Numbered from the stretch's first letter, positions 44,272-57,224 are shown. The stretch is DNA of 64,000 nt from Candidatus Omnitrophota bacterium (GCA_029261035.1 JAJDCD010000008.1:162313-226312), one strand, 5' to 3'. The notes: generated by a model not told the origin, from the sequence alone. A program made the numbers and translations.

Positions 44272-45090
44272 CTATGTTCCAATTTTCATTTTAGAGAAAA
44301 TTTTATTTAATGTAGCTGCCAAAGAATACTGTGCCAAAGCACTCGTTTTAGGGTTATCTTTTGAGGGGACATTCTCTGTAAAGGTATTAATGCGTCCAAA
44401 CTTTCCTTCTGCTGTTATCTCATGAGAGTTCGCTGTAAACTCAGGAGAAGTCAATACTTTAACTTTAACTTGCTCAGGGCCTAGCGTTGCCAAAGAAAGA
44501 ACAGCTGCAACATTAACATTTTGAGGGAAAGCTTTAACTGCTTCAGTAGCTGTTCCTTCAAAAATCATTTGCTCTGTTTGAATAGAATCTAGGTCGATTC
44601 CCTTTTCTATTAAAAAAGGAGCTCCTCTTAACCCTTCAATAGGTTTCCTTGTTGTTAAAGTGATTCTTTCTATTCCTTCTTGCATAGCTGCATTCAATGC
44701 ATCAATACCCGCTACAGCTCCCGAGGGAACAAATACTTGCCCCACAGAATTAAATAACAAATCCTTTAAGGAAGGAACGTCTAAAATCCCACCCACACTC
44801 ATAACTAAAATAAGTTTTCCGCTTTGCAACGACTTCTCTAACAATTCTGGAACGCAAGAAACATGAGCGGCTTCAATAATTAAATCAACATCCTCTAAAT
44901 GCTCGTTCCAGCTAGAAATAACTTCAACGCCTTGAGTCAATTCTATTTTCAACTTATCTGCGGCATTTAAATTGATATCACAAACCCACTGAAGCTTAGC
45001 TTTATCACCATAGTCTCTTTCAACAAGTCGAGCGATGTAACTCCCAATAGAGCCACAACCCACTAAACCTATACGGACTATACCTGACAC
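44272..45090 (-). CDS. Aspartate dehydrogenase-like NAD(P)-binding protein (NadX/DUF108 family)
   Basis: 272 aa. N-terminal Rossmann fold IGLVGCGSIGSYIA and size fit L-aspartate dehydrogenase. It overlaps panD by 13 bp. Confidence 0.5.
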   Translation of the reverse strand: MSGIVRIGLVGCGSIGSYIARLVERDYGDKAKLQWVCDINLNAADKLKIELTQGVEVISSWNEHLEDVDLIIEAAHVSCVPELLEKSLQSGKLILVMSVGGILDVPSLKDLLFNSVGQVFVPSGAVAGIDALNAAMQEGIERITLTTRKPIEGLRGAPFLIEKGIDLDSIQTEQMIFEGTATEAVKAFPQNVNVAAVLSLATLGPEQVKVKVLTSPEFTANSHEITAEGKFGRINTFTENVPSKDNPKTSALAQYSLAATLNKIFSKMKIGT

Positions 45091-45461
45091 GAAACTGTCT
45101 CTTCTTCAGATATTTTCGTAATACGGTTCTTCTCATCCACTCGAACTACTTTTGGACGATGAGAATCTATTTCTTCTTTTGTAAGGAGAGCAAAAGAAAT
45201 AATAATAGCAATATCCCCTTCATTCGCATGATGAGCGGCCGCTCCATTCATACAAATGACACCAGAACCTCTAGGACCCGGAATGCAATAAGTTTCCAAA
45301 CGAGAACCATTCGTTACATTAGCAACCAAAACCTTTTCCCAGTGAGCCATACCAGAAGCATCCATCAGATCCTCATCAATAGTAATACTACCTTCATACT
45401 CTAGATTTGTTTCTGTAATGGTTACACGGTGAATTTTAGAATTTAGTAATTGACGTTGCAT
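45078..45461 (-). CDS. panD: Aspartate 1-decarboxylase proenzyme
   Basis: 127 aa. LNSKIHRVTITETNLEYEGSITIDEDLMDASG (Gly-Ser self-cleavage site) and GSGVICMNGAAA. Confidence 0.9.
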   Translation of the reverse strand: MQRQLLNSKIHRVTITETNLEYEGSITIDEDLMDASGMAHWEKVLVANVTNGSRLETYCIPGPRGSGVICMNGAAAHHANEGDIAIIISFALLTKEEIDSHRPKVVRVDEKNRITKISEEETVSCQV

Positions 45462-45485
45462 GGTTTAAACAACCTCCAAATTAAT

Positions 45486-46328
45486 TTATTTTTTTATTAC
45501 TCGGTTATCTATCAGTCTTGTTTTTCCTAAAGTACAAGCTATTCCAAGTAAAATATCTCCAGTCACTTGTTTTATATTTTCCAAACTTTCAAGATCTAAT
45601 ATTTCAACATACTGGATTTTATCGACTACAGGCTCCAAAGATTTCTGAATATCTTTCTTCAACTGAGCCACATTCGTTTCTCCAGAACGGATCAACTGTT
45701 CTGCATATTCTAATGCCAGATAGATCATAGGCGCTTTTGCTCTTTGTAATTCGCTCAAATAGGCATTTCTAGAGCTCATCGCCAAACCATCCATCTCACG
45801 GATCGTTGGCAAAACTTCTAAGGCTAGGGGCATATTCAGATCCTTAACCATACGCTTCAAAATCACAGCTTGCTGATAATCCTTTTGCCCAAAATAGGCT
45901 TTTGTAGGCCGAACTAAATTAAATAATTTTGCAACAACAGTACAAACCCCATCAAAATGCCCTGCGCGAAACTGCCCACATAATCGCAGCCCTAACTTCC
46001 CTGCCTTTACTTCAGTCTGAAATCCTTTAGGATACATTTCAGTCACTTTTGGTAAAAAAAGAATATCTGCCTTTTCTTTCTTTAACAAACGTTCATCTTG
46101 AGCTAAGGTTCGCGGATATTTTTTAAAATCTTCTTTAGGACCAAATTGAGTTGGATTTACAAAAACACTAACAACAACTCGCTTATTCTTTTTTCTGGCA
46201 GTACGGACCAACGACAAGTGCCCTTCATGCAAAGCCCCCATTGTTGGGACAAAACCAATAGAGTGTGATTGTTTAGCTTGTCTCAAAGACCATGCTGTCA
46301 TTTCACTCAAAGAAACAATTTTTTTCAT
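45486..46328 (-). CDS. panC: Pantoate--beta-alanine ligase
   Basis: 280 aa. HIGH-like motif PTMGALHEGHLSLV. Confidence 0.85.
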   Translation of the reverse strand: MKKIVSLSEMTAWSLRQAKQSHSIGFVPTMGALHEGHLSLVRTARKKNKRVVVSVFVNPTQFGPKEDFKKYPRTLAQDERLLKKEKADILFLPKVTEMYPKGFQTEVKAGKLGLRLCGQFRAGHFDGVCTVVAKLFNLVRPTKAYFGQKDYQQAVILKRMVKDLNMPLALEVLPTIREMDGLAMSSRNAYLSELQRAKAPMIYLALEYAEQLIRSGETNVAQLKKDIQKSLEPVVDKIQYVEILDLESLENIKQVTGDILLGIACTLGKTRLIDNRVIKK

Positions 46329-46852
46329 TACACAGTCACTGGGGATTCAACGTTTTCTTTTTGCTTTTGAATAAATTCTTGAAGCTGAACATCCCCTAAC
46401 AAATCAATCAACAACTCCTGTACTGATTTCTTTGTTTTTGGATGAACCCAATCTTCATTGCATTCGTGCAAAGGTTTTAAAACAAATTCTCTCTGCTCAA
46501 TTCGAGGATGAGGTAACATCAACTCATCTTCCTCAATAACCTCTTCGTCATAGCAAAGCAAATCCAAATCTAAAGTCCTCGGTCCATTTTTCTCGACTCG
46601 TTTTCTGCCCAAACCCAATTCAATTCTCTGCAAATGACTTAATAACTCGAAGGCGCTAACTTCAGATTCCACCACCCAAACAGCATTCAAGTAAAGTCCT
46701 TGAGCAGGACCTCCATGAGGAAGAGTTTCGTAAATTGAAGACTCTTTCTTCCACGTTACACCAGGTATAGCCTTTATCTGATCTCTCGCTTTTTGAATGT
46801 ATTGCAGTCGATCCCCTAAATTAGAACCAACACCAATATAAGCTGTGGACAT
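46328..46852 (-). CDS. folK: 2-amino-4-hydroxy-6-hydroxymethyldihydropteridine pyrophosphokinase (HPPK)
   Basis: 174 aa. AYIGVGSNLGD N-terminus and RTLDLDLL. Confidence 0.85.
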   Translation of the reverse strand: MSTAYIGVGSNLGDRLQYIQKARDQIKAIPGVTWKKESSIYETLPHGGPAQGLYLNAVWVVESEVSAFELLSHLQRIELGLGRKRVEKNGPRTLDLDLLCYDEEVIEEDELMLPHPRIEQREFVLKPLHECNEDWVHPKTKKSVQELLIDLLGDVQLQEFIQKQKENVESPVTV

Positions 46853-46876
46853 AAGCAGCTTCCCTCATCTATATTT

Positions 46877-48049
46877 CTATTTTAAATTTTTAATACGCTC
46901 TACTGCTTCCTGCAACTTCTCTTTAGCCACCGTAACAGAAAAACGAATAAAACCTTCCCCATTCGGTCCAAATCCGTTTCCTGGGGTAACAACAATACCT
47001 GCATCTTTAAGTAACTTTGTTGTTAGCTCTGCACTGGTATAACCTGATGGAACTTTAGTCCAAATATAAAATGTTGCTTTAGGTTTATTAACTTTCCAGC
47101 CTATACTTTCAAGACCATCAACTAAAATATCTCTTCTTTCTTGATAAATATCAATATTATCTTGGACTGCTTGGTCACCCTCTTTCAAGGCTGTTGTTGC
47201 TGCTACTTGAATCGCCTGAAAAATTCCAGAATCACAATTCGCCTTCACCTTAGCAAGCAATTTCAAGATTTCTGGATTTCCAACAGCAAAACCAACACGC
47301 CATCCTGTCATATTGTATGTCTTAGAAAGAGAATGAAATTCAATCCCTACTTCTTTAGCACCTTTTGCTTGTAAAAAGCTAACAGGTTTATATCCATCAT
47401 AAGCCATTTCGGTATACGCCGCATCCTGAGCCACAATAATGTCATGCTCTTTCGCAAACTGAACAACCTCTTCATAAAACTCAAGAGTGGCACATGCCGC
47501 GGTTGGATTATTTGGGTAATTTAAAAACATCAATTTCGCTTGCTTCAATGCTGCAGGATCTATTGCTGAAAAATCAGGTAAAAAACCTTTTTCTTCAACC
47601 AAAGGAATCGTACTTGTTTCTGCTCCTGCAAAATAAGAAGCTGAATGATAAACTGGGTAACCAGGATCCGGAACTAACACAACATCTCCAGGGTTTACAA
47701 CAGCCAATGGGAGATGAGCAATTCCCTCTTTAGAACCAATCAAAGGTAATATCTCATTTTGAGTATCTACAGAAACACCAAAACGTCTTTGAAACCAAGA
47801 TGCAATTTCTTCTCTAAAGGAAGGCATCCCTGCATCAAGAGCATAACGATGATTCTTTGGGTCCTTAGCACCCTCATAAAGAGAATCAATAATAAAGTTA
47901 GGTGTTGGAATATCAGGGTCTCCCACGCCAAGATCAATAATATCAACACCCTGATCTCTAGCCTCTCTCTTAAGACGGTCAATCTCTGCAAATAAATAAG
48001 GGGGCAATTTCTTAATTCTGTCTGCTGCTTCAATAGTCAAAGTGGTCAT
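46877..48049 (-). CDS. Class-I aminotransferase, LL-diaminopimelate aminotransferase (DapL)-like
   Basis: 390 aa. N-terminus KLPPYLFAEIDRLKRE...IIDLGVGDPD and PLP-lysine region SLSKTYNMTGWRVGF. Confidence 0.55.
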   Translation of the reverse strand: MTTLTIEAADRIKKLPPYLFAEIDRLKREARDQGVDIIDLGVGDPDIPTPNFIIDSLYEGAKDPKNHRYALDAGMPSFREEIASWFQRRFGVSVDTQNEILPLIGSKEGIAHLPLAVVNPGDVVLVPDPGYPVYHSASYFAGAETSTIPLVEEKGFLPDFSAIDPAALKQAKLMFLNYPNNPTAACATLEFYEEVVQFAKEHDIIVAQDAAYTEMAYDGYKPVSFLQAKGAKEVGIEFHSLSKTYNMTGWRVGFAVGNPEILKLLAKVKANCDSGIFQAIQVAATTALKEGDQAVQDNIDIYQERRDILVDGLESIGWKVNKPKATFYIWTKVPSGYTSAELTTKLLKDAGIVVTPGNGFGPNGEGFIRFSVTVAKEKLQEAVERIKNLK

Positions 48050-48241: not shown

Positions 48242-51200
48242 TTAGGCTGCTATAAGGACCTTACGCATATTCTGCCATTCCTGAACAAGGTCTTGAAGAA
48301 TCTGAGGCAATAACAGTAAGGTGTTAGAATCACGGTCTCTTTGAAATAATTCCAGCAAAGCAGATCTGTTTTGAGCGACATAGAAAGAAGCTGCTAGATA
48401 AGCTCCACGATAATCAGAATCACGGCTAAATTTTTCTGCCTCAAACTGAATTCTTAAATCGCCTTCTTCCCAGTCTGCGGTGTTAAAAGAGTCATTCAAA
48501 AATACAGACTCTGCTAAATTAATTCCATTTGGAAAGTAAGGTCTTAAAAAGAACATCGATTTTTCTAAAAGGGCTTCAACATCTTTTGATAACATCTGTG
48601 TCATAGGTCGTTTCCACAAAAGAAGGGCAACCCGATAATCTTTCCAAAGACGCATCACACCTCCATACTCTCGAGCAATATCCGATATCTGATTTTTATC
48701 TGAAACTAAAAACACAACCATATTCGCTTTATTACCATCCCGCACATCCTCATCTCTTCGAGTTAACTCTTGTAATACTCCTTCTGTATTCGAATTCAAC
48801 TCCATAAAAATCGGAGTAAGATTTCTTTGCTCTTGAACAGAGTGAAGAATTACTTGAGCTTGCCCCAAACTTTGTCCTGTTGCAGCCGCTGCTTGTCCTG
48901 CATTCGAAAGCTGCCTTGAAATTTGTTGAAGCAGCATAGCCGTATGGTCTTGTGGGGTCCCAAACCCTAGAACACTCACATTCCTAAAGGAGTCAGAAGC
49001 TGTTTGAAAACGTGCGCGAACAGTACTGTTTCTTCTACCCACCAAAACATGCCGCCATCTTCCTGTTACAGCAAGAGCAAAGTTTAGATATGCTTTTTCT
49101 TCTTCTATCTTACTTGCTGCTAGAGCCGTTCGCACTTGTGTTCCTGTCATCTCTTCAGCAGCAGCATTTGCTCCGGTAATAATAAAAGAGTATCTAGCCG
49201 GAATCACTCTTCCAGACAGTTTCTCTGTCTTAAATATTTCAAGACCTCGAAACCAGTTTTTAGCGCGTAACAAACTTACTTGTTGCAAATTCTCATCAAC
49301 AATATCTCTTTCATCATTAATCCTCAAATCATAGTTAAGCGCTTTAAGAAAATGATGTTCTAAAGACATCCAAATACGAGCATCAGAAACTCCTGAGTAA
49401 TCGTTCTGATTAGAACTTCTAACTTTAGACCAAACAACTCTCATTTGTTGAAAAGCTCTTTCTGCTAATTCATTCGCTTCATTTGACCCCGTTTTATATA
49501 TATTAAAAGCCCTCTGGTCTGTTCTTAGTGCCTGTTCATCAATACTAGGAATATCAGACCACTTTGCATAAGCTTCTAACAAGTTAATATCCGCCAACAC
49601 CTTTAATGCTTGTATTTCAGCAAAACCTGCTGGGGTATTCACATCCCCCACAAATCCAATTCCACCTCTTGCTATTTGCTCACCAGACCCTGTTTTAATG
49701 ATTCTAATTTGAGCATCTGTTGCTCCCATACTTTTCATCCACTGCTCTATACGAGTTCGAGCTCCATCAAAATTATTATCCGCAGCTAAATAATACGCTT
49801 CCATAGGATAAGCTTTCTGAACCCAAGTAGATTGAGGATAAGCCGTCCTCAATGACTGCAACTCCGAAAGTGCTGTAGCATACTCACCGTTATATGCCGA
49901 TAAATGGGCTATTGCCCACAAATATTCTTGATGTTCTGCTGGAGTCAGTTGTTTGATTTCATTTTCAGTAGCTAGATTTTTAAGCGCTCTCACTTGCTCT
50001 AAATAATCATCAAGAGTTAAGTCGGATCTTAGTTTTTTCAGTAACGCTAATTTCACTTTAACGTGATAAAACCTAAGAAAAGAAAGATAAGCTCTATCTG
50101 AATGCACTGAAAAATGATTGCTAAATTGCCTATCAAAGCTTGTTAATGCATCCTTGTTAATAGAAGCATCCTCCAAGCCTTGTTTAACTAAAATCAAAAA
50201 TGAAACTAACCCTCTCAATTGTCGAACTTTTGTCTCAAGAGTTGTATCTTTTCCAATTAATTTATCTGACGCCTGATCTAACAAGTTTTTTGCATCTGCC
50301 CATTCCCCTGATTTAATTTTAACCTCAGCCTGAGCAATCAAAGCCCTACCTTCTTCAATTTGAGAGGCTCTTCTCTGTCTTTGAGCATCTAAAGCAATAC
50401 GCGCTTGATACTTCCTCCAACCTTCTGTTATCAAGTAAAACGCAGCCCCTCCAAGTAAAACAACAGACAGTAATGCCCCTAACACTAACTGCCCTCGTCT
50501 TTTTCTTAGACTTCTTTTTCTTTTATCTTTCTGCGCTTCCACATTACGATTTTCAAGAAAATTTTCAAGATCTTCTGCTAATTCAACAGCCGAAGGATAT
50601 CTACTCTCTTCACTTTTTTCCATCGTCTTAATAATTATTTCTTCTAAGTCTTTAGGTATTGCCGGGTTAATTTCACTAGGCCTTTTAAAATCATTAAGCA
50701 TAATTGCTGACATAAGCATTAAGGAAGAACTCGCAGTAAAAGGAAGCTGCCCCGTTAACATGTAATACAAAATAGCTCCTAACGCCCAAACATCGGTAGG
50801 TGCCTTTGCATCCCTAGCCAAACCCGTTGCTTGTTCTGGAGACATAAATGATGGAGTTCCTATGACAGCTCCTGTTCTTGTTAACTCCTCAGCTCTGGCC
50901 TTTGATGTCAACTTCGCCAAACCAAAATCTGTAACATAAGGAACACTCCCTTCCCCTAAAAGGATATTTTGAGGTTTTAGATCTCGATGAATAAAATCTC
51001 TTTTATGCACCCTTGCCATAGCTTCAACAATTTGTTTAAACAACACCGTTCTATCTCTAATAAGCTTCTCAGCTTCTTTTGATTTAGGTTTACTTGGAAT
51101 AATTTCCCCCTGATCTATCCACCGTCTTATTTGCTCTTCTAAATCCCCGCCCTCGACAAACTCCATAACAAAAAAGGGCTCTTCCTTGCCCTCTCTTAAT

Positions 51201-54200
51201 CGAACGTTGCCTACTGCGTAAATTTTAACAACTCCCATAAAATCTAGCTGTACCATTGATTCAGCTTCTTCTTTGAAACGTAACATTTCCTCAGCACCTG
51301 CGTGTTCAAGAAGTCGTTTTATTGCTACTTTTCTTCCTGTTTTAGATGCCCTAAAGTCCAACCCTTGGTACACAGCTCCCATACCCCCCTTAGCTAAAAA
51401 CTTCGTAATTCTAAACCTCCCTGCTTGTTGCTGATTAAATAAACGGACAAATCCATCCGTCTGCTGTAAATAAAGTGTATCTGGATCAACAGGACTCATC
51501 TTTGCCATTAACTTAGGTGAAACATCCCCAGGCTGAAGCCCTACTTGAGTTCTCCCTTCAGCAACCGTACCTCCAGACAAACTAGGAGAGACCACAGAAG
51601 TAGGCGCTCTCGCTATTACCATCCGATAGGATCTTCCATTAACATTGACATAAAAATCAGGATTCAAACCATTCGCATCCAGAACAATAAAAGGAGGATC
51701 AATGTTAGGCTTACTCCACTTCTCATTATTCTCAAAGGTCTGAAAATAGAATTGAAAAGTAGTTCCATTTAAAGGGATGGGTACAAAATATTGCGCTTGG
51801 ATGAAAGCTTGTTGAGCCTGTTGCAATAGAGAGACAACAGGACCTTTATTCAAAGCCGCATAAGCTTGACGATATTGCTCCAAGATTTCAACTGCTGTCT
51901 CAACAGGTTTATCTCCTAAACTCTGCGCTTCAACAGATCCTTCTTCTCTCCAAACTGTTAATAGATCTCCCATTAAATTCACATCATTAAATTGATCGGC
52001 AGCTTCTGCAAAAGCTGCTCCCTGAGTCGCTTTTTGCACCCAGCCTCTAAAACGTTTTACGCGCGCGGATGTTGGAATACCAGAAGTTAAATCAACTCTT
52101 CTCTGACGAATCACCCGCCCCAATAGTTGAAAGTAAGTTTTAGGATCACTCGATAACTCTTCATCTCCCTTTACCGTTCTTAACAACAATCGAATATCAG
52201 AAAGTCTTTCTTTATTTTCATCACTCAGTTGATTAAAACTACTTAACAAGCGTCCTAATTGCCGACTGGAGTTAGAAGCTATATTCGATTGCTCTCTTGC
52301 CCCATTAGACAAGTTGCCCAAATCACCCATTAAGGCCTCAATGCCGATAGAATAATCAAGCCCTGCCAAAAATGCTAAACGTAAATTTCTGATTTGAGCA
52401 GGGTTATTTGAATTTCCAGAGGATTGAATAATGGCTAAAATACTAGCCTGTAATGACTGAGAGTAATAATCTTCTATTTGTCGAGAAAGCTCCCTTTTCT
52501 TACCATACAAAGCTCCCAGTTCAGAGCTTGGATGCCCTTGTCCTGGAGTCCAACTTCCAGATCGACCATCAGGTTCTAAAATTTGTCTATAACGTCTCAT
52601 AGTAATCAACTGCTCAAGAACATATGTATCTAAAATAGCGCGTCTTAGTTTTAAACGATTCACTGGATCTGAATTTTGCAAATCAACCGCCTGTAAACCT
52701 TGACGTGCAGTTTCAAATTGAGCATTTTCCCCACCAATTGCTTTCATCAGTCTAATTCGAGCTATAAGTAAATGAGAAGAAGTCATCAAATTAGAAGATG
52801 CAAATCGAGATTGGAAATCCGACAGAGTTGTCAATGAAGCATCCAAACTTCCCATTCGATATTGGATAGTCGCTTTCTTCCAAGTATTAGCTTCATTCGT
52901 AGCATTTGCTGAATTAGAAATTTCTCGCAGAGCCAAAGCATACATATGGTTGGATAATGAAACATTGTTTTTTTCACCAGGCAACCTCAAAAGAAAACCC
53001 AGGCTTTCAAATAAACTAATTTTATCTGTGCCCGTTGTTCCTTGAAACAAATCAGAAGAAGAGAAATCTGATGATGATGGCCTGGTTGATTGAGTTAATA
53101 AAAATGATAGTCGATCAGCTATTAAACTTAACACACCTTCATTTAAACCTTTATTTAATTGAACAGACTGACTTGACTTGGATAACAAAATACGAGCAAG
53201 ACGATTAAAACGAGTTTTATCGGTATCATTTAAATCACCATATCGACTCGCAACTATATTTAAATCATTGAACGCTTGAGAAATATCGGGACTCTGTTTT
53301 TTTAACTCAGTATCTGCTGACTTAAAATTTACGCCAATTTGCTGAGTTCTTAAAGATGTGATTACTTCTTGAACCCTTGCTTTTAACGCAGCAGAAAATA
53401 GAGGCACTTCTTTAAAAGTATCTATCAAGGCTAAAATACGACTTACATCCGCAGGACGAGCAGAGTCTCCCTTTTTAATCTCTGCATCTGCTTGCTGCAA
53501 CGCCGTAACTAACTGTCTCATACTTAAAACCTTCGCATCTAACCGAGGCCTTTCTCCAGAATTAATACTTCGAGCATCATCAATTAGTTTTATTGCATCA
53601 TCATACCTTCTATCCAAAATTGCTTGTTCTGCATCATTAATATGATCTGCTTTTAACGTTAACTCTTGATTCCTTTGATAGTCCTTATACATAGAGCTCC
53701 CAATAGAAAAAGCGCCTAACATAGCTAGAGTAACAATTGCAGCTGCCAAGATTCCCGCAACAGCTTTATTTCTCTGAATTAACTTTTGTAATCGATAAAA
53801 AAGACCTTGGTTTTTAACTGCTTGAACAGGTTGGTTATTCAACCAACGGTCTAAATCGTCTGCCAACTCACTTGCAGATTGATAACGATCTGAAGGTTGC
53901 TTTTCTAATGCTTTTAAAATAATTGCTTCGATTTCTTTTGAAACCTTAGAGTTTTGACTTCGAATTGGAGTTGGATTCTGCATTGAAATAGCAGTTAAAA
54001 CAGCCGTCAATGAAGGCCCTGAAAATGGATACTCTTTGGTTAAAGACTTATAAAGCATTCCCCCTAAAGCCCAAACATCTATGCGATGATCAATTTCTGT
54101 AGATTTATTAATTTGTTCGGGAGCCATGTAAACAGGTGTTCCCAATATATCTCCTGTTCGAGTTAAAGCTTCTTCACTATTCACTAAATGCGCTAAACCG

Positions 54201-56818
54201 AAATCAGCAATCTTAGTAGAACCATCATTAGCAATAATCACATTAGCAGGTTTTAAATCACGATGGATCACCCCTGCTTTATGAGCCTTATCTAAAGATC
54301 GTGCAACATCTCTAATAATCCGAACTCTTTCTCTTAACACTTCATCTGATGTTGGAACAGGAGATTCCATAATCACATCCCTAAAATCTTCACCTTCAAC
54401 AATGTCCATTGCATAGAAAGGCCTAAGACCATATTGAGGATGTTGAACTTGTCCAATAAATCGAGATTGAACAATTCCGGGGTCATTTACTTGAGCCGCC
54501 GCTTGTGCTTCTCGTTTAAAACGAATAAACGACTCTGCATCGATAGCAGCTTCAAATGGAATCACTTTTACAGCTGATTGCCTTGGAGTTCCTGGGATTC
54601 TCAAATCCACCGCTTCATAAACAACCCCCATAGCTCCTCTTCCCAACTCTCGTATTAATCTAAACTGAGGTACCTGTTGAGAAAACAACTGAACCATCGC
54701 ATCTCCCGATGGAGGCAATTCGCTTTGATTTAAAGGAAGAGTTCCAGTTCCTTGTCTTTCTGTTCTACTTACAGAGTCTGCAGCAACCTGCACATCCGTG
54801 ATTGCCGTCAATTTAAAATGATAACCATCGATAGTCACATGATTCGTTCTAGGATCCTGTCGCAACAAAATATCTTGAACTTGCCTACCTGGTTGAATTT
54901 GAGGAGACTTCCAAGTGTTACCTTGGTAAATCTGAACAATAAAATCCATTACTTGACCTTGGAAGTTAATTCTAAACGGCTGACCTAATGGATCAATTGA
55001 TTCTCTATTTCGTCGATCTCTTACATTGCGAACCAACTCTTGCATAACCTCCATCCAAAAAGCATCTTGCATATTTTGGCCATAAGTCATGATGATTTTT
55101 TCAAACATGACATCACGAGAATCACTTTCAATGCCCAAAGATGCAGCCACAGCTTCTGGAACATCATAGTACGGCAAAGCTCCGATTTGAGTTGCCGCAG
55201 CTTCCAGCTTGAATGCAGGATCATCTAACCGAGGCTCTAATTTAACCGTTCCTGTTGCTGGATTTATAATTTGATTTAAAGACACTTCTTGCTTAGCCAA
55301 CAATTCCCAATACGGAGATGTGTCCCAATCAGGATCCGCAATCGGTGTCATCACCCAATAAGAAATATCTTTGTCTTTTAACCGCTTCGCAATCCCTTCG
55401 GTATGGAAACCACCTGCAACAACAAAAATAATTTTCTGCTTGGTGTTTTTTAATAGTTTTTCGATGTTTTGGGATAATGCTTCATCCCTTTTGTAAACAT
55501 ATTCATAATATTGAAAAGCAGAAGACATTAAAGAAATCATACGAAGCATTACAGGGTCACTTCTAAAAGTAAAACCTCGACGTTCAAATAGGTCATCTAA
55601 GGACTGCCACCAAACCTTTGTTTGGATAATATCCATACGAGACATCAGCTCTTGATAGTGCTTGTTCTCTAATTCCAAACGAGACAACTTGTCTAAAAGC
55701 ATAAAGTCTCGATCCACCTGAATCAGCATTCTTTCGTCACGAGAACGAGCTAGAAGTGGGTAAAGCTTCTTTTCTAAGCGCTCTAATTGCTCAAAAAAGT
55801 CACTCGATGCCAATACATCCATTTCTTTTTGAAACTTGATCCAACGAGCAAAAACCTTATTTTCATTTTTAAGACCTTCTGACTGTTGATTCCAAAAAGA
55901 ATTTACTCTTAGCATCCATTGAGATTCTGGTTCGTCAACACCTCTGATCATCCCCCATTCGCTCAAAAGTGCTTTAATTCGTTTTTGATCTAATTTACTC
56001 TCCTCTTGAAACAATAGAGACATTTGCTCAATTGCTGGATACAGATTTAAACTTACTCCCTTTTCTGTAGATAGTTGAATTAAAAGCCTTAGATAGACTC
56101 TTAACTGATTTACATCTTTTTCAAATTGGTCTTTAATTTGTTCTACATCTCGAAGTTGTTTGGAGTAGACTTGATTTTTAAGGCGGTTTACTTCTAATTT
56201 CGTATTTTCTATGGCTTTAACAACTGAAAACTGATGGTCTAAAAAGGAGCGATAGGCACTCACATTTTTCTGGTACAAATTCTTACTATCAATCCCCCAC
56301 AATTTAGCTTTTCGATTATTGTTTATTGCGTAATACTGGGCACCATCAATCTTGCCATCCCACATAAAAGAGTTCGTAACATCTCGGGTAATTTCCGGAA
56401 CAGGAAAAGCGGTGAAAATCAAAGGGTTAATTTCTTCCGGACCACTTCCTTCAAGACCAATCGTAATCTCTTCAGAAAGCCCCATAGAAACAAGCTTGTC
56501 TTCAAAGTAATCCAGTGTAGAAATAATATTTTGTTGGGCTTGAAAATTGGCATGAGCTTCTTGCAACAAAACCACAAGAGGATAGTCCCCTAAAGGTTTT
56601 TCTTCTGTCTCCGGAGACATCCAGAAAGATTCTCTATCGACTATCTCATTAGATAACCCACTCAAAAAAGATTGAGGAGAAACTAAAGTAGGAGCACCCA
56701 TCATCGGGTTTGCTTTTGCAGGTAAAGGTATAAATACGGAAGTAACAACAAAGCAAATCAGAACGACTAAAGATGTAAAGAATTGAAAACTCTTATGCTT
56801 CAAAATTAAAACCTCCAT
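48242..56818 (-). CDS. Giant (2858 aa) membrane protein: N-terminal hydrophobic segment, TraB/GumN-like domain, then two tandem Ser/Thr protein kinase modules, each followed by a TM segment and a long helical (TPR-like) region
   Basis: GumN/TraB motifs LVVLLQEAHAN (aa ~81-91) and IIFVVAGGFHTEGI (aa ~463-476). Kinase 1 (aa ~718-985): GRGAMGVV, AVKVI, HRDLKPANV, DFG, YMAPE, DVWALG. TM 2 (aa ~1019-1043). Kinase 2 (aa ~1801-2085): AKGGMGAV, VAIKRL, HRDLKPQN, DFG, FMSPE, DVWALG. TM 3 (aa ~2110-2130). Confidence 0.85.
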   Translation of the reverse strand: MEVLILKHKSFQFFTSLVVLICFVVTSVFIPLPAKANPMMGAPTLVSPQSFLSGLSNEIVDRESFWMSPETEEKPLGDYPLVVLLQEAHANFQAQQNIISTLDYFEDKLVSMGLSEEITIGLEGSGPEEINPLIFTAFPVPEITRDVTNSFMWDGKIDGAQYYAINNNRKAKLWGIDSKNLYQKNVSAYRSFLDHQFSVVKAIENTKLEVNRLKNQVYSKQLRDVEQIKDQFEKDVNQLRVYLRLLIQLSTEKGVSLNLYPAIEQMSLLFQEESKLDQKRIKALLSEWGMIRGVDEPESQWMLRVNSFWNQQSEGLKNENKVFARWIKFQKEMDVLASSDFFEQLERLEKKLYPLLARSRDERMLIQVDRDFMLLDKLSRLELENKHYQELMSRMDIIQTKVWWQSLDDLFERRGFTFRSDPVMLRMISLMSSAFQYYEYVYKRDEALSQNIEKLLKNTKQKIIFVVAGGFHTEGIAKRLKDKDISYWVMTPIADPDWDTSPYWELLAKQEVSLNQIINPATGTVKLEPRLDDPAFKLEAAATQIGALPYYDVPEAVAASLGIESDSRDVMFEKIIMTYGQNMQDAFWMEVMQELVRNVRDRRNRESIDPLGQPFRINFQGQVMDFIVQIYQGNTWKSPQIQPGRQVQDILLRQDPRTNHVTIDGYHFKLTAITDVQVAADSVSRTERQGTGTLPLNQSELPPSGDAMVQLFSQQVPQFRLIRELGRGAMGVVYEAVDLRIPGTPRQSAVKVIPFEAAIDAESFIRFKREAQAAAQVNDPGIVQSRFIGQVQHPQYGLRPFYAMDIVEGEDFRDVIMESPVPTSDEVLRERVRIIRDVARSLDKAHKAGVIHRDLKPANVIIANDGSTKIADFGLAHLVNSEEALTRTGDILGTPVYMAPEQINKSTEIDHRIDVWALGGMLYKSLTKEYPFSGPSLTAVLTAISMQNPTPIRSQNSKVSKEIEAIILKALEKQPSDRYQSASELADDLDRWLNNQPVQAVKNQGLFYRLQKLIQRNKAVAGILAAAIVTLAMLGAFSIGSSMYKDYQRNQELTLKADHINDAEQAILDRRYDDAIKLIDDARSINSGERPRLDAKVLSMRQLVTALQQADAEIKKGDSARPADVSRILALIDTFKEVPLFSAALKARVQEVITSLRTQQIGVNFKSADTELKKQSPDISQAFNDLNIVASRYGDLNDTDKTRFNRLARILLSKSSQSVQLNKGLNEGVLSLIADRLSFLLTQSTRPSSSDFSSSDLFQGTTGTDKISLFESLGFLLRLPGEKNNVSLSNHMYALALREISNSANATNEANTWKKATIQYRMGSLDASLTTLSDFQSRFASSNLMTSSHLLIARIRLMKAIGGENAQFETARQGLQAVDLQNSDPVNRLKLRRAILDTYVLEQLITMRRYRQILEPDGRSGSWTPGQGHPSSELGALYGKKRELSRQIEDYYSQSLQASILAIIQSSGNSNNPAQIRNLRLAFLAGLDYSIGIEALMGDLGNLSNGAREQSNIASNSSRQLGRLLSSFNQLSDENKERLSDIRLLLRTVKGDEELSSDPKTYFQLLGRVIRQRRVDLTSGIPTSARVKRFRGWVQKATQGAAFAEAADQFNDVNLMGDLLTVWREEGSVEAQSLGDKPVETAVEILEQYRQAYAALNKGPVVSLLQQAQQAFIQAQYFVPIPLNGTTFQFYFQTFENNEKWSKPNIDPPFIVLDANGLNPDFYVNVNGRSYRMVIARAPTSVVSPSLSGGTVAEGRTQVGLQPGDVSPKLMAKMSPVDPDTLYLQQTDGFVRLFNQQQAGRFRITKFLAKGGMGAVYQGLDFRASKTGRKVAIKRLLEHAGAEEMLRFKEEAESMVQLDFMGVVKIYAVGNVRLREGKEEPFFVMEFVEGGDLEEQIRRWIDQGEIIPSKPKSKEAEKLIRDRTVLFKQIVEAMARVHKRDFIHRDLKPQNILLGEGSVPYVTDFGLAKLTSKARAEELTRTGAVIGTPSFMSPEQATGLARDAKAPTDVWALGAILYYMLTGQLPFTASSSLMLMSAIMLNDFKRPSEINPAIPKDLEEIIIKTMEKSEESRYPSAVELAEDLENFLENRNVEAQKDKRKRSLRKRRGQLVLGALLSVVLLGGAAFYLITEGWRKYQARIALDAQRQRRASQIEEGRALIAQAEVKIKSGEWADAKNLLDQASDKLIGKDTTLETKVRQLRGLVSFLILVKQGLEDASINKDALTSFDRQFSNHFSVHSDRAYLSFLRFYHVKVKLALLKKLRSDLTLDDYLEQVRALKNLATENEIKQLTPAEHQEYLWAIAHLSAYNGEYATALSELQSLRTAYPQSTWVQKAYPMEAYYLAADNNFDGARTRIEQWMKSMGATDAQIRIIKTGSGEQIARGGIGFVGDVNTPAGFAEIQALKVLADINLLEAYAKWSDIPSIDEQALRTDQRAFNIYKTGSNEANELAERAFQQMRVVWSKVRSSNQNDYSGVSDARIWMSLEHHFLKALNYDLRINDERDIVDENLQQVSLLRAKNWFRGLEIFKTEKLSGRVIPARYSFIITGANAAAEEMTGTQVRTALAASKIEEEKAYLNFALAVTGRWRHVLVGRRNSTVRARFQTASDSFRNVSVLGFGTPQDHTAMLLQQISRQLSNAGQAAAATGQSLGQAQVILHSVQEQRNLTPIFMELNSNTEGVLQELTRRDEDVRDGNKANMVVFLVSDKNQISDIAREYGGVMRLWKDYRVALLLWKRPMTQMLSKDVEALLEKSMFFLRPYFPNGINLAESVFLNDSFNTADWEEGDLRIQFEAEKFSRDSDYRGAYLAASFYVAQNRSALLELFQRDRDSNTLLLLPQILQDLVQEWQNMRKVLIAA

Positions 56819-57147: not shown

Positions 57148-57224
57148 TGGCGCGCCCGAGTGGATTCGAACCACTGACCCTTTGCTTAGAAGGCAAATGC
57201 TCTATCCAACTGAGCTACGGGCGC
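57148..57224 (-). tRNA. tRNA-Arg (anticodon TCT), 77 nt, CCA encoded
   Basis: Hand-folded: acceptor GCGCCCG/CGGGCGC, anticodon stem TTTGC/GCAAA, loop CTTCTAA, T-arm AGTGG-TTCGAAT-CCACT. Confidence 0.9.

Follow-up and report, generated by a model that had tools for sequence, protein, structure and literature searches.

The 64,000-nucleotide stretch of Candidatus Omnitrophota bacterium analysed here (GCA_029261035.1, JAJDCD010000008.1:162313-226312; hereafter the window) carries at 48242-56818, on the minus strand, one open reading frame (ORF) encoding a protein of 2858 amino acids (aa) in which an N-terminal domain, called the head below, precedes two Ser/Thr kinase domains. The head represents a family not described before; it contains a helical insert of about 250 aa and appears distantly related to Tiki, TraB, ChaN and the erythromycin esterases. 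Judging from sequence comparisons and a structure model, it is probably a catalytically intact hydrolase of the TIKI superfamily and the usual opening domain of long modular proteins from Omnitrophota and Auribacterota. A first-pass annotation made from the DNA alone had proposed a TraB/GumN-like domain fused to the N-terminus of a Ser/Thr kinase receptor, on the strength of two motifs, one near the start (LVVLLQEAHAN) and one near the end (IIFVVAGGFHTEGI). Both motifs lie in this ORF exactly where they had been placed (Table 1) and the domain exists, but its extent had been underestimated (aa ~78-480): the family alignment and an AlphaFold model extend it to about aa 56-512.

The head is a real, large and strongly constrained family. 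When aa 40-700 served as query in an exhaustive HMMER search, the matches, counted in cluster representatives, numbered 6418 at E-values up to 1e-3, 3941 up to 1e-10 and 91 up to 1e-30. Among the top 150 of the 6418 representatives (the 150 best relatives, on which the counts of downstream content given below are based), the match began within the first 133 residues in every case, the proteins themselves being 432 to 6489 aa long. Residues H89, E123, G124, G175, R444, G469, G470 and H472 were invariant in an alignment of 152 sequences, so the motifs are not a product of chance, and Q86, D/E87, Q95, G155, G159, Y182, N185, D445, N451, P492 and Y503 were conserved in at least 91% of it. Position 87 is Glu in the window protein and Asp in 91% of the 152 sequences; the first motif accordingly reads Q-E-A-H in the window protein but Q-D-A-H in 91-95% of relatives.

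The suggestion that such a domain had not been described in this context held up. No Pfam or NCBIfam model scored above threshold on the head region, either in the window protein or in the other members scanned, and P0151, the one relative to come with a source name (Candidatus Omnitrophota bacterium), is labelled 'hypothetical protein' by NCBI. A word-indexed homologue search with aa 1-563 gave no match, and the same search with alignment A1 retrieved P0151 only. As far as term searches reach into two papers on Omnitrophota long proteins (bioRxiv 10.1101/2023.11.21.568195 and 10.64898/2026.06.07.730766), neither the head family nor the junction motif described below was found in them. As a separate observation, five of the 14 head-family members of alignment A1 (P0026 and P0029 among the relatives) matched PF23202 (PAH_ZNF598), with a best E-value of 3.4e-6; the window protein did not.

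An AlphaFold model of the head built from a 14-sequence alignment reached a predicted local distance difference test score (pLDDT) of 83.5 and a predicted template modelling score (pTM) of 0.75, while the model built from the single sequence (pLDDT 34) was useless. Its N-terminal half comprises a strand at 81-87 followed by H89, a helix at 92-111, a strand at 118-122 followed by E123 and a strand at 171-175; its C-terminal half comprises a helix at 432-459 bearing R444 and N451, a strand at 463-469 leading into G-G-F-H472, a helix at 470-482 and a strand at 486-492. The helical insert lies between these halves. The model stops at aa 543, and over its last stretch, beginning at about aa 510, pLDDT is under 50. 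H89, E123 and H472 are thus each modelled directly after a core strand, and R444 in the helix that precedes the last motif strand.

The placement of these residues resembles that in the TIKI superfamily, which is described as a parallel sheet flanked by helices with the active site at or near the strand ends and in which HopBA1, ChaN and the erythromycin esterase family are listed as members (PMC6254334). The active site of RRSP consists of a 2His/2Glu set, E3900-x-H3902, E3930 and H4030, together with the conserved basic residue R4001; the E-x-H, E, R, H set is essential in RRSP by mutagenesis and is shared with Bcr135, whose catalytic pair is H85 and E113, and with the erythromycin esterases (PMC6254334). 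Residues E/D87-x-H89, E123, R444 and H472 of the head match this 2His/2Glu plus Arg set in the same order and with comparable spacing to RRSP (His to Glu, 34 residues against 28; Arg to His, 28 against 29). Of the two hallmark motifs claimed for the TraB/GumN family, the second, G-G-F-H, is indeed a GxxH motif, but the first is not: TraB/GumN proteins have G37-x-x-H40 at this place, where the head has Q-[DE]-A-H without Gly, and the head therefore lacks the pair of GxxH motifs.

Sequence profiles pointed in the same direction, at marginal scores. Pfam applied to native aa 1-523 matched ChaN (PF04187, E-value 0.096) and TraB (PF01963, E-value 0.37), both on aa 437-484. Insert-free constructs (aa 56-196 joined to aa 428-512) were then compared for 24 diverse relatives. 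PF04187 was matched by 14 of the 24 at E<1, with a best E-value of 3.6e-5 and 24.3 bits in a relative, the window protein itself scoring 13-17 bits, below the gathering threshold of 27.7 bits; those PF04187 matches for which coordinates were shown were all limited to profile positions ~140-212, and no other family was matched by more than two of the 24 constructs. PF01963, with a gathering threshold of 26.8 bits, reached 11.0 bits with the native sequence and 13.5 bits once the insert was removed, and only two of the 24 relatives matched it at E<1. The best NCBIfam match overall was to TIGR00261 (TraB), at an E-value of 2.9e-4 for the insert-free construct of one member.

Profile-profile and structural comparisons were of similar strength. 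When the 152-sequence core was aligned by hhalign with 11 diverse TraB/GumN proteins, an alignment built from plasmid hits, the E-value was 6.5e-4 and the probability 27.6% over 123 columns, R444 and H472 being paired with R227 and H251 of TraB so that R...GxxH stood in register; a 24-sequence core gave a probability of 19%, and comparisons with a single YbaP (2.6%) or a shallow enterobacterial YbaP profile (4%) were uninformative. The highest-probability Foldseek matches in the PDB were EreC (0.63 and 0.54), HopBA1 (0.38) and ChaN (0.30), none of them significant because the insert attracts coiled-coil proteins. Taken together with the active-site pattern, these individually weak profile, hhalign and Foldseek results make it likely that the head belongs to the TIKI superfamily (Tiki/TraB, ChaN, Ere, RRSP/PMT, HopBA1). 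The TraB/GumN label given to it initially thus caught a likeness at superfamily level, in the active-site set and the remote matches, but membership in PF01963 (TraB/PrgY/GumN) is not supported.

Relatives retrieved by genome and metagenome scans, the genome-collection scan having used the close-relative alignment A4, came from a groundwater Candidatus Omnitrophota metagenome-assembled genome (MAG) with three paralogues, from Candidatus Auribacterota and from other MAGs; those with a named source belonged to Omnitrophota and Auribacterota. Kinases were present in just 18 of the 150 best relatives, in numbers of one to about five each. Other relatives carry a His_Phos_1 (histidine phosphatase), CheR methyltransferase or LbH domain, and several of more than 2500 aa showed no Pfam domain at all. 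The scarcity of kinases and the varied content behind the head make it a generic N-terminal module rather than a kinase accessory. No gene neighbour common to the head family was found beyond lineage synteny. In assembly JACROU01 three head-plus-kinase genes were seen (L002, L003 and L006) and in CAYVGJ01 two head-bearing genes (L007 and L008). Thousands of long proteins, then, share one N-terminal domain with intact TIKI-type active-site residues.

The fusion of the N-terminal domain to a double kinase, as first annotated, is real and is conserved in orthologues. L012 (2807 aa) and L014 (3454 aa) are orthologous over their full length and collinear, with the head, both kinases and the C-terminal domain. 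Orthologues were found at the equivalent chromosomal position in three other assemblies, two of them with the full two-kinase layout and the third, L002 of the Omnitrophota MAG JACROU01, with a one-kinase version. An aminotransferase gene (74-78% identical) lies directly downstream in L012, L014 and L002 as in the window, and folK and panC follow in L012 and L002 as in the window, with panD also in L012 (the conserved stretch is window 45078-48049). These identities tie the window to Omnitrophota relatives, among which its organism probably belongs. Collinear orthologues and shared synteny indicate that the gene is real and orthologous. An origin of the ORF by assembly error or frameshift fusion was ruled out by the collinear orthologues in two independent metagenomes.

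Both kinases are of the Hanks type (PF00069). Pfam placed two Pkinase domains above threshold (aa 720-981 and aa 1804-2082; E-value 5e-80 for the protein as a whole, 269 bits over both domains), and the translation shows the G-loop, catalytic Lys, HRDLKxxN, DFG and APE motifs in each (GRGAMGVV, AVKV, HRDLKPAN, DFG and APE in kinase 1; KGGMGAV, VAIK, HRDLKPQN, DFG and SPE in kinase 2). The region of aa 617-1107 is 30% identical to aa 1681-2208 (E-value 5e-57, window 50195-54967, by self-comparison), which indicates a tandem duplication of a unit that comprises the pre-kinase region, the kinase and the membrane helix. Each unit looks like an ordinary receptor kinase, with a small pre-kinase region, a cytoplasmic kinase, one membrane helix and a helical-repeat region. 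They do not fall into the PknB (Stk1) PASTA class: the best NF033483 match was confined to the kinase portion of the profile (positions 9-279 of 563), and Pfam detected no PASTA domain. No Pfam match was obtained for the C-terminal domain of the protein.

Table 1. Features of the 2858-aa gene, with positions counted from the first nucleotide of the window.
Feature	Residues (aa)	Window position	Strand	Basis or remark
Whole gene: signal-like helix, Tiki-like head, kinase unit 1, kinase unit 2, conserved C-terminal domain	1-2858	48242..56818	-	ORF list, translation, collinear full-length orthologues L012 and L014, synteny
Signal-peptide-like N-terminal segment	1-36	56711..56818	-	Hydrophobic helix aa 14-32 followed by A-K-A; Kyte-Doolittle 2.51
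Tiki-superfamily-like head domain	56-512	55283..56653	-	Family search, AlphaFold model, conserved residues, remote matches
Motif 1, LVVLLQEAHAN	81-91	56546..56578	-	First core strand (81-87), ending in E87-x-H89
H89 codon, proposed catalytic His	89	56552..56554	-	Invariant in alignment
E123 codon	123	56450..56452	-	Invariant; end of second core strand (LEG)
Helical insert, ~13 helices, between core halves	179-431	55526..56284	-	AlphaFold secondary structure
R444 codon, proposed counterpart of conserved basic residue of TIKI enzymes	444	55487..55489	-	Invariant
Motif 2, IIFVVAGGFHTEGI	463-476	55391..55432	-	Core strand ending in G469-G-F-H472; in register with TraB VGALH and ChaN profile positions 140-212
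Junction motif 1, AASLG	558-562	55133..55147	-	Beyond model end, downstream of low-confidence stretch after head
Ser/Thr kinase domain 1	713-1005	53804..54682	-	Pfam/NCBIfam; intact catalytic motifs in translation
Membrane helix after kinase 1	1019-1037	53708..53764	-	Flank charge +4 kinase side, 0 far side
Junction motif 2, AQSLG	1631-1635	51914..51928	-	Just before kinase unit 2
Ser/Thr kinase domain 2	1796-2100	50519..51433	-	Pfam/NCBIfam; intact catalytic motifs
Membrane helix after kinase 2	2112-2130	50429..50485	-	Flank charge +8 kinase side, +1 far side
Junction motif 3, GQSLG	2648-2652	48863..48877	-	Start of C-terminal domain
C-terminal domain, ~210 aa	2645-2858	48245..48886	-	Conserved in P0001-P0006, P0009, L012, L014

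Several observations concern the surroundings of the gene. The window (1-64000) contains 40 ORFs of 150 aa or more, all on the minus strand; its GC (guanine-cytosine) skew is about -0.2 throughout (range -0.09 to -0.34), and a tRNA-Arg(tct) gene stands just upstream of the 2858-aa gene at 57148-57224. A second copy of the head was not found within the 64-kb window, and exact-sequence look-ups gave no record for the 2858-aa protein or for the neighbouring aminotransferase.

The predicted topology of the protein is unusual. Its only strongly hydrophobic segments are the N-terminal one and the two post-kinase helices (Kyte-Doolittle 2.35-2.51; next best 1.25). The N-termini of the family resemble Sec signals, with a mean charge of +3.3 before and -0.8 after an uncharged stretch (median 13 aa), and the post-kinase helices have kinase-side flanks of +4 to +8 and far sides of -1 to +2, in the window protein and in every orthologue. 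All three hydrophobic helices look like in-to-out signals, a stop-transfer segment is absent from the stretches between them, and one uncut chain could not satisfy three consecutive signals of this kind. An uncut chain would put one of the kinases outside the cytoplasm, and the charge pattern is conserved in the orthologues.

A short motif, [AG]xSLG, marks the boundaries between the modules. The window protein has three copies where 0.15 would be expected (shuffle P=4e-4), and they fall precisely on the three junctions; examples of the junction peptides are PEAVAASLGIESDS, SVEAQSLGDKPVE and AATGQSLGQAQVI. Pooled over 164 proteins it was observed 115 times, compared with 13.1 +/- 3.5 in shuffles. 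The motif is found at the equivalent junctions of L012, L014, P0019 and single-kinase paralogues, and about 12 residues ahead of the kinase G-loops in multi-kinase relatives; P0065 has 12 copies, spaced 26-381 residues apart. Its first copy in the window protein lies 15 residues past the end of the AlphaFold model, in what is likely a disordered linker, and a weak amphipathic helix follows the motif. It is possible that [AG]xSLG is a processing site or else a cap at the start of a module. Its presence strengthens the earlier idea that the head might be a processing domain.

If the head is the enzyme proposed, a His-Glu pair (H89 or H472 with E123, E87 assisting) might activate water for attack on a peptide or ester bond while R444 holds the substrate, by analogy with the TIKI enzymes, and the helical insert could form a lid or a substrate-recognition element. 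As the head follows a signal-peptide-like helix, it would be exported. Its substrate would most likely be a polypeptide, the leading candidate being the [AG]xSLG linkers of the protein itself, or some comparable linker or peptide exposed close to the membrane.

Several points weigh against this assignment. No remote-homology test was significant alone, every Pfam score fell under its curated cut-off, hhalign probabilities reached just 19-28% (4% against the shallow YbaP-only profile), the best relevant Foldseek E-value was 0.12 with a poor global superposition, and phmmer and profile searches of the PDB sequences found no TIKI-family chain. Alignment at the sequence level is confined to the C-terminal R...GxxH half, and since hhalign puts E123 on TraB E158, not on E66, it is uncertain which residues correspond in the N-terminal half. 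The nearest profile, ChaN, is that of a haem-binding protein and not of an enzyme. Moreover, if the head is exported, as its signal-like helix would have it, junctions in need of cleavage on the cytoplasmic side would be out of its reach. Such scores, all under conventional significance, would also be expected if the resemblance were convergent or coincidental and an unrelated alpha/beta plus helical fold happened to carry the H, E, R, H residues. This is unlikely, because five independent kinds of evidence (Pfam, NCBIfam, hhalign, Foldseek and the residues at strand ends) meet on one superfamily among thousands, the Pfam matches of 14 of 24 constructs go to one family on a shared profile region, and three different TIKI-superfamily structures lead the Foldseek results. 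The binding function of ChaN, along with the conserved kinase linkage, would fit a non-catalytic ligand-binding or sensor domain (a ChaN-like receptor for haem, a cofactor or a peptide signal) regulating the attached kinases, as the first-pass annotation had it in proposing a kinase-linked sensor. This is very unlikely: the H/E/R/H set is invariant in 152 sequences although pure binding does not need it, the non-catalytic TIKI member PMT having lost its catalytic set (PMC6254334), and kinases are missing from 132 of the 150 best relatives. A membrane helix between the head and the first kinase is also absent in 22 of 22 kinase-bearing relatives, which leaves no route for the usual transmembrane signalling. 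The head can therefore not be an outside sensor for an inside kinase, and the classical arrangement of that kind is not supported.

A more specific extension of the enzyme assignment is that the protein is a polyprotein from which cleavage at all three [AG]xSLG junctions releases four products. These would be a Tiki-like enzyme that includes the signal (aa 1-560), a pair of independent type-II receptor kinases (aa ~561-1633 and aa ~1634-2650) and a C-terminal protein of 208 residues, and the head would act as the maturation protease or as one of several. With three in-to-out signals and no further hydrophobic segment, four pieces would satisfy the predicted topology where the uncut chain does not; the motif is over-represented, stands at all three junctions and recurs in orthologues and multi-kinase relatives; and TIKI-superfamily enzymes include sequence-specific endopeptidases such as RRSP (PMC6254334). 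However, cleavage would have to be deduced from motif and topology, at least two copies of the motif are present in only 28 of 164 relatives though the head is universal, and the motif, with the weak amphipathic helix behind it, could be a structural cap. Junctions 1 and 2 also separate predicted exported from predicted cytoplasmic parts, so that the nascent chain would need to be cut in the cytoplasm while the head looks exported. Cutting into four pieces is thus possible, though doubtful, and the wider proposal, that a polyprotein cut at [AG]xSLG, possibly by its own head, represents a head-plus-junction system by which one clade or more of the Omnitrophota long proteins mature, is decidedly tentative. 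Omnitrophota and their relatives encode long and giant modular proteins in great number; for the study of their export, topology and maturation, a head with a TIKI-type site offers a concrete enzyme to test, and three apparent in-to-out signals together with an over-represented junction motif make it directly testable whether the chain is cut.

Among known systems, ChaN (Cofac_haem_bdg, PF04187; PDB 2G5G) provides the best sequence profile, its module of Arg-helix, strand and GxxH aligning at positions 140-212, and it is also a Foldseek match, over 146 columns; it has an alpha/beta core and a preceding export signal, as predicted for the head. ChaN is, however, a stand-alone haem-binding lipoprotein of about 250 aa, whereas the head has an insert of that size, a full catalytic set and a multi-kilodalton modular protein behind it. 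With the TraB/PrgY/GumN/Tiki proteins (PF01963, TIGR00261; e.g. YbaP of E. coli) the head shares the ordered set of a His after strand 1, a Glu after a later strand, an Arg in a helix and GxxH after the last motif strand. It differs from them in its Q-[DE]-A-H motif 1, in its sub-threshold Pfam score and in having its hydrophobic segment at the N-terminus; TIKI and PrgY are anchored through C-terminal membrane segments. The erythromycin esterases (EreC, 6XCQ/6XCS; Bcr135, 3B55) are the best structural match (0.63), with about 400 aa, a helical lid and a His-Glu pair like the one proposed for the head, but they are soluble stand-alone resistance enzymes for which no sequence-level match to the head was found and the Foldseek E-value was 0.12.

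The giant toxins MARTX and PMT, which contain RRSP and PMT C1/C2, have, as the present protein probably does, a TIKI-fold domain within a very large exported multi-module protein; there, in contrast, the domain is one delivered effector module and not a universal N-terminal head, and sequence similarity to the head was not detected. Omnitrophota long proteins are described as having N-terminal regions generally without identifiable domains, some with C39 or S8 peptidases (bioRxiv 10.1101/2023.11.21.568195 and 10.64898/2026.06.07.730766). Like the present protein, these long and giant proteins begin with a signal or a membrane segment, after which membrane helices alternate with enzyme modules of 'cytoplasmic-type'; term searches of the two papers brought up neither the head family nor the junction motif. 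Receptor Ser/Thr kinases of the PknB/PknD class, finally, resemble the present units in combining a kinase of the Hanks type with a single membrane helix, strongly positive on its kinase side, and a large region past that helix. Unlike them, the present units have helical repeats as outer regions in place of PASTA or beta-propeller sensors, and two such units follow each other within one ORF after a predicted export signal, an order whose topology appears inconsistent if the chain stays in one piece. To kinase biology the gene offers a case in which a single reading frame encodes a tandem pair of complete receptor kinases.

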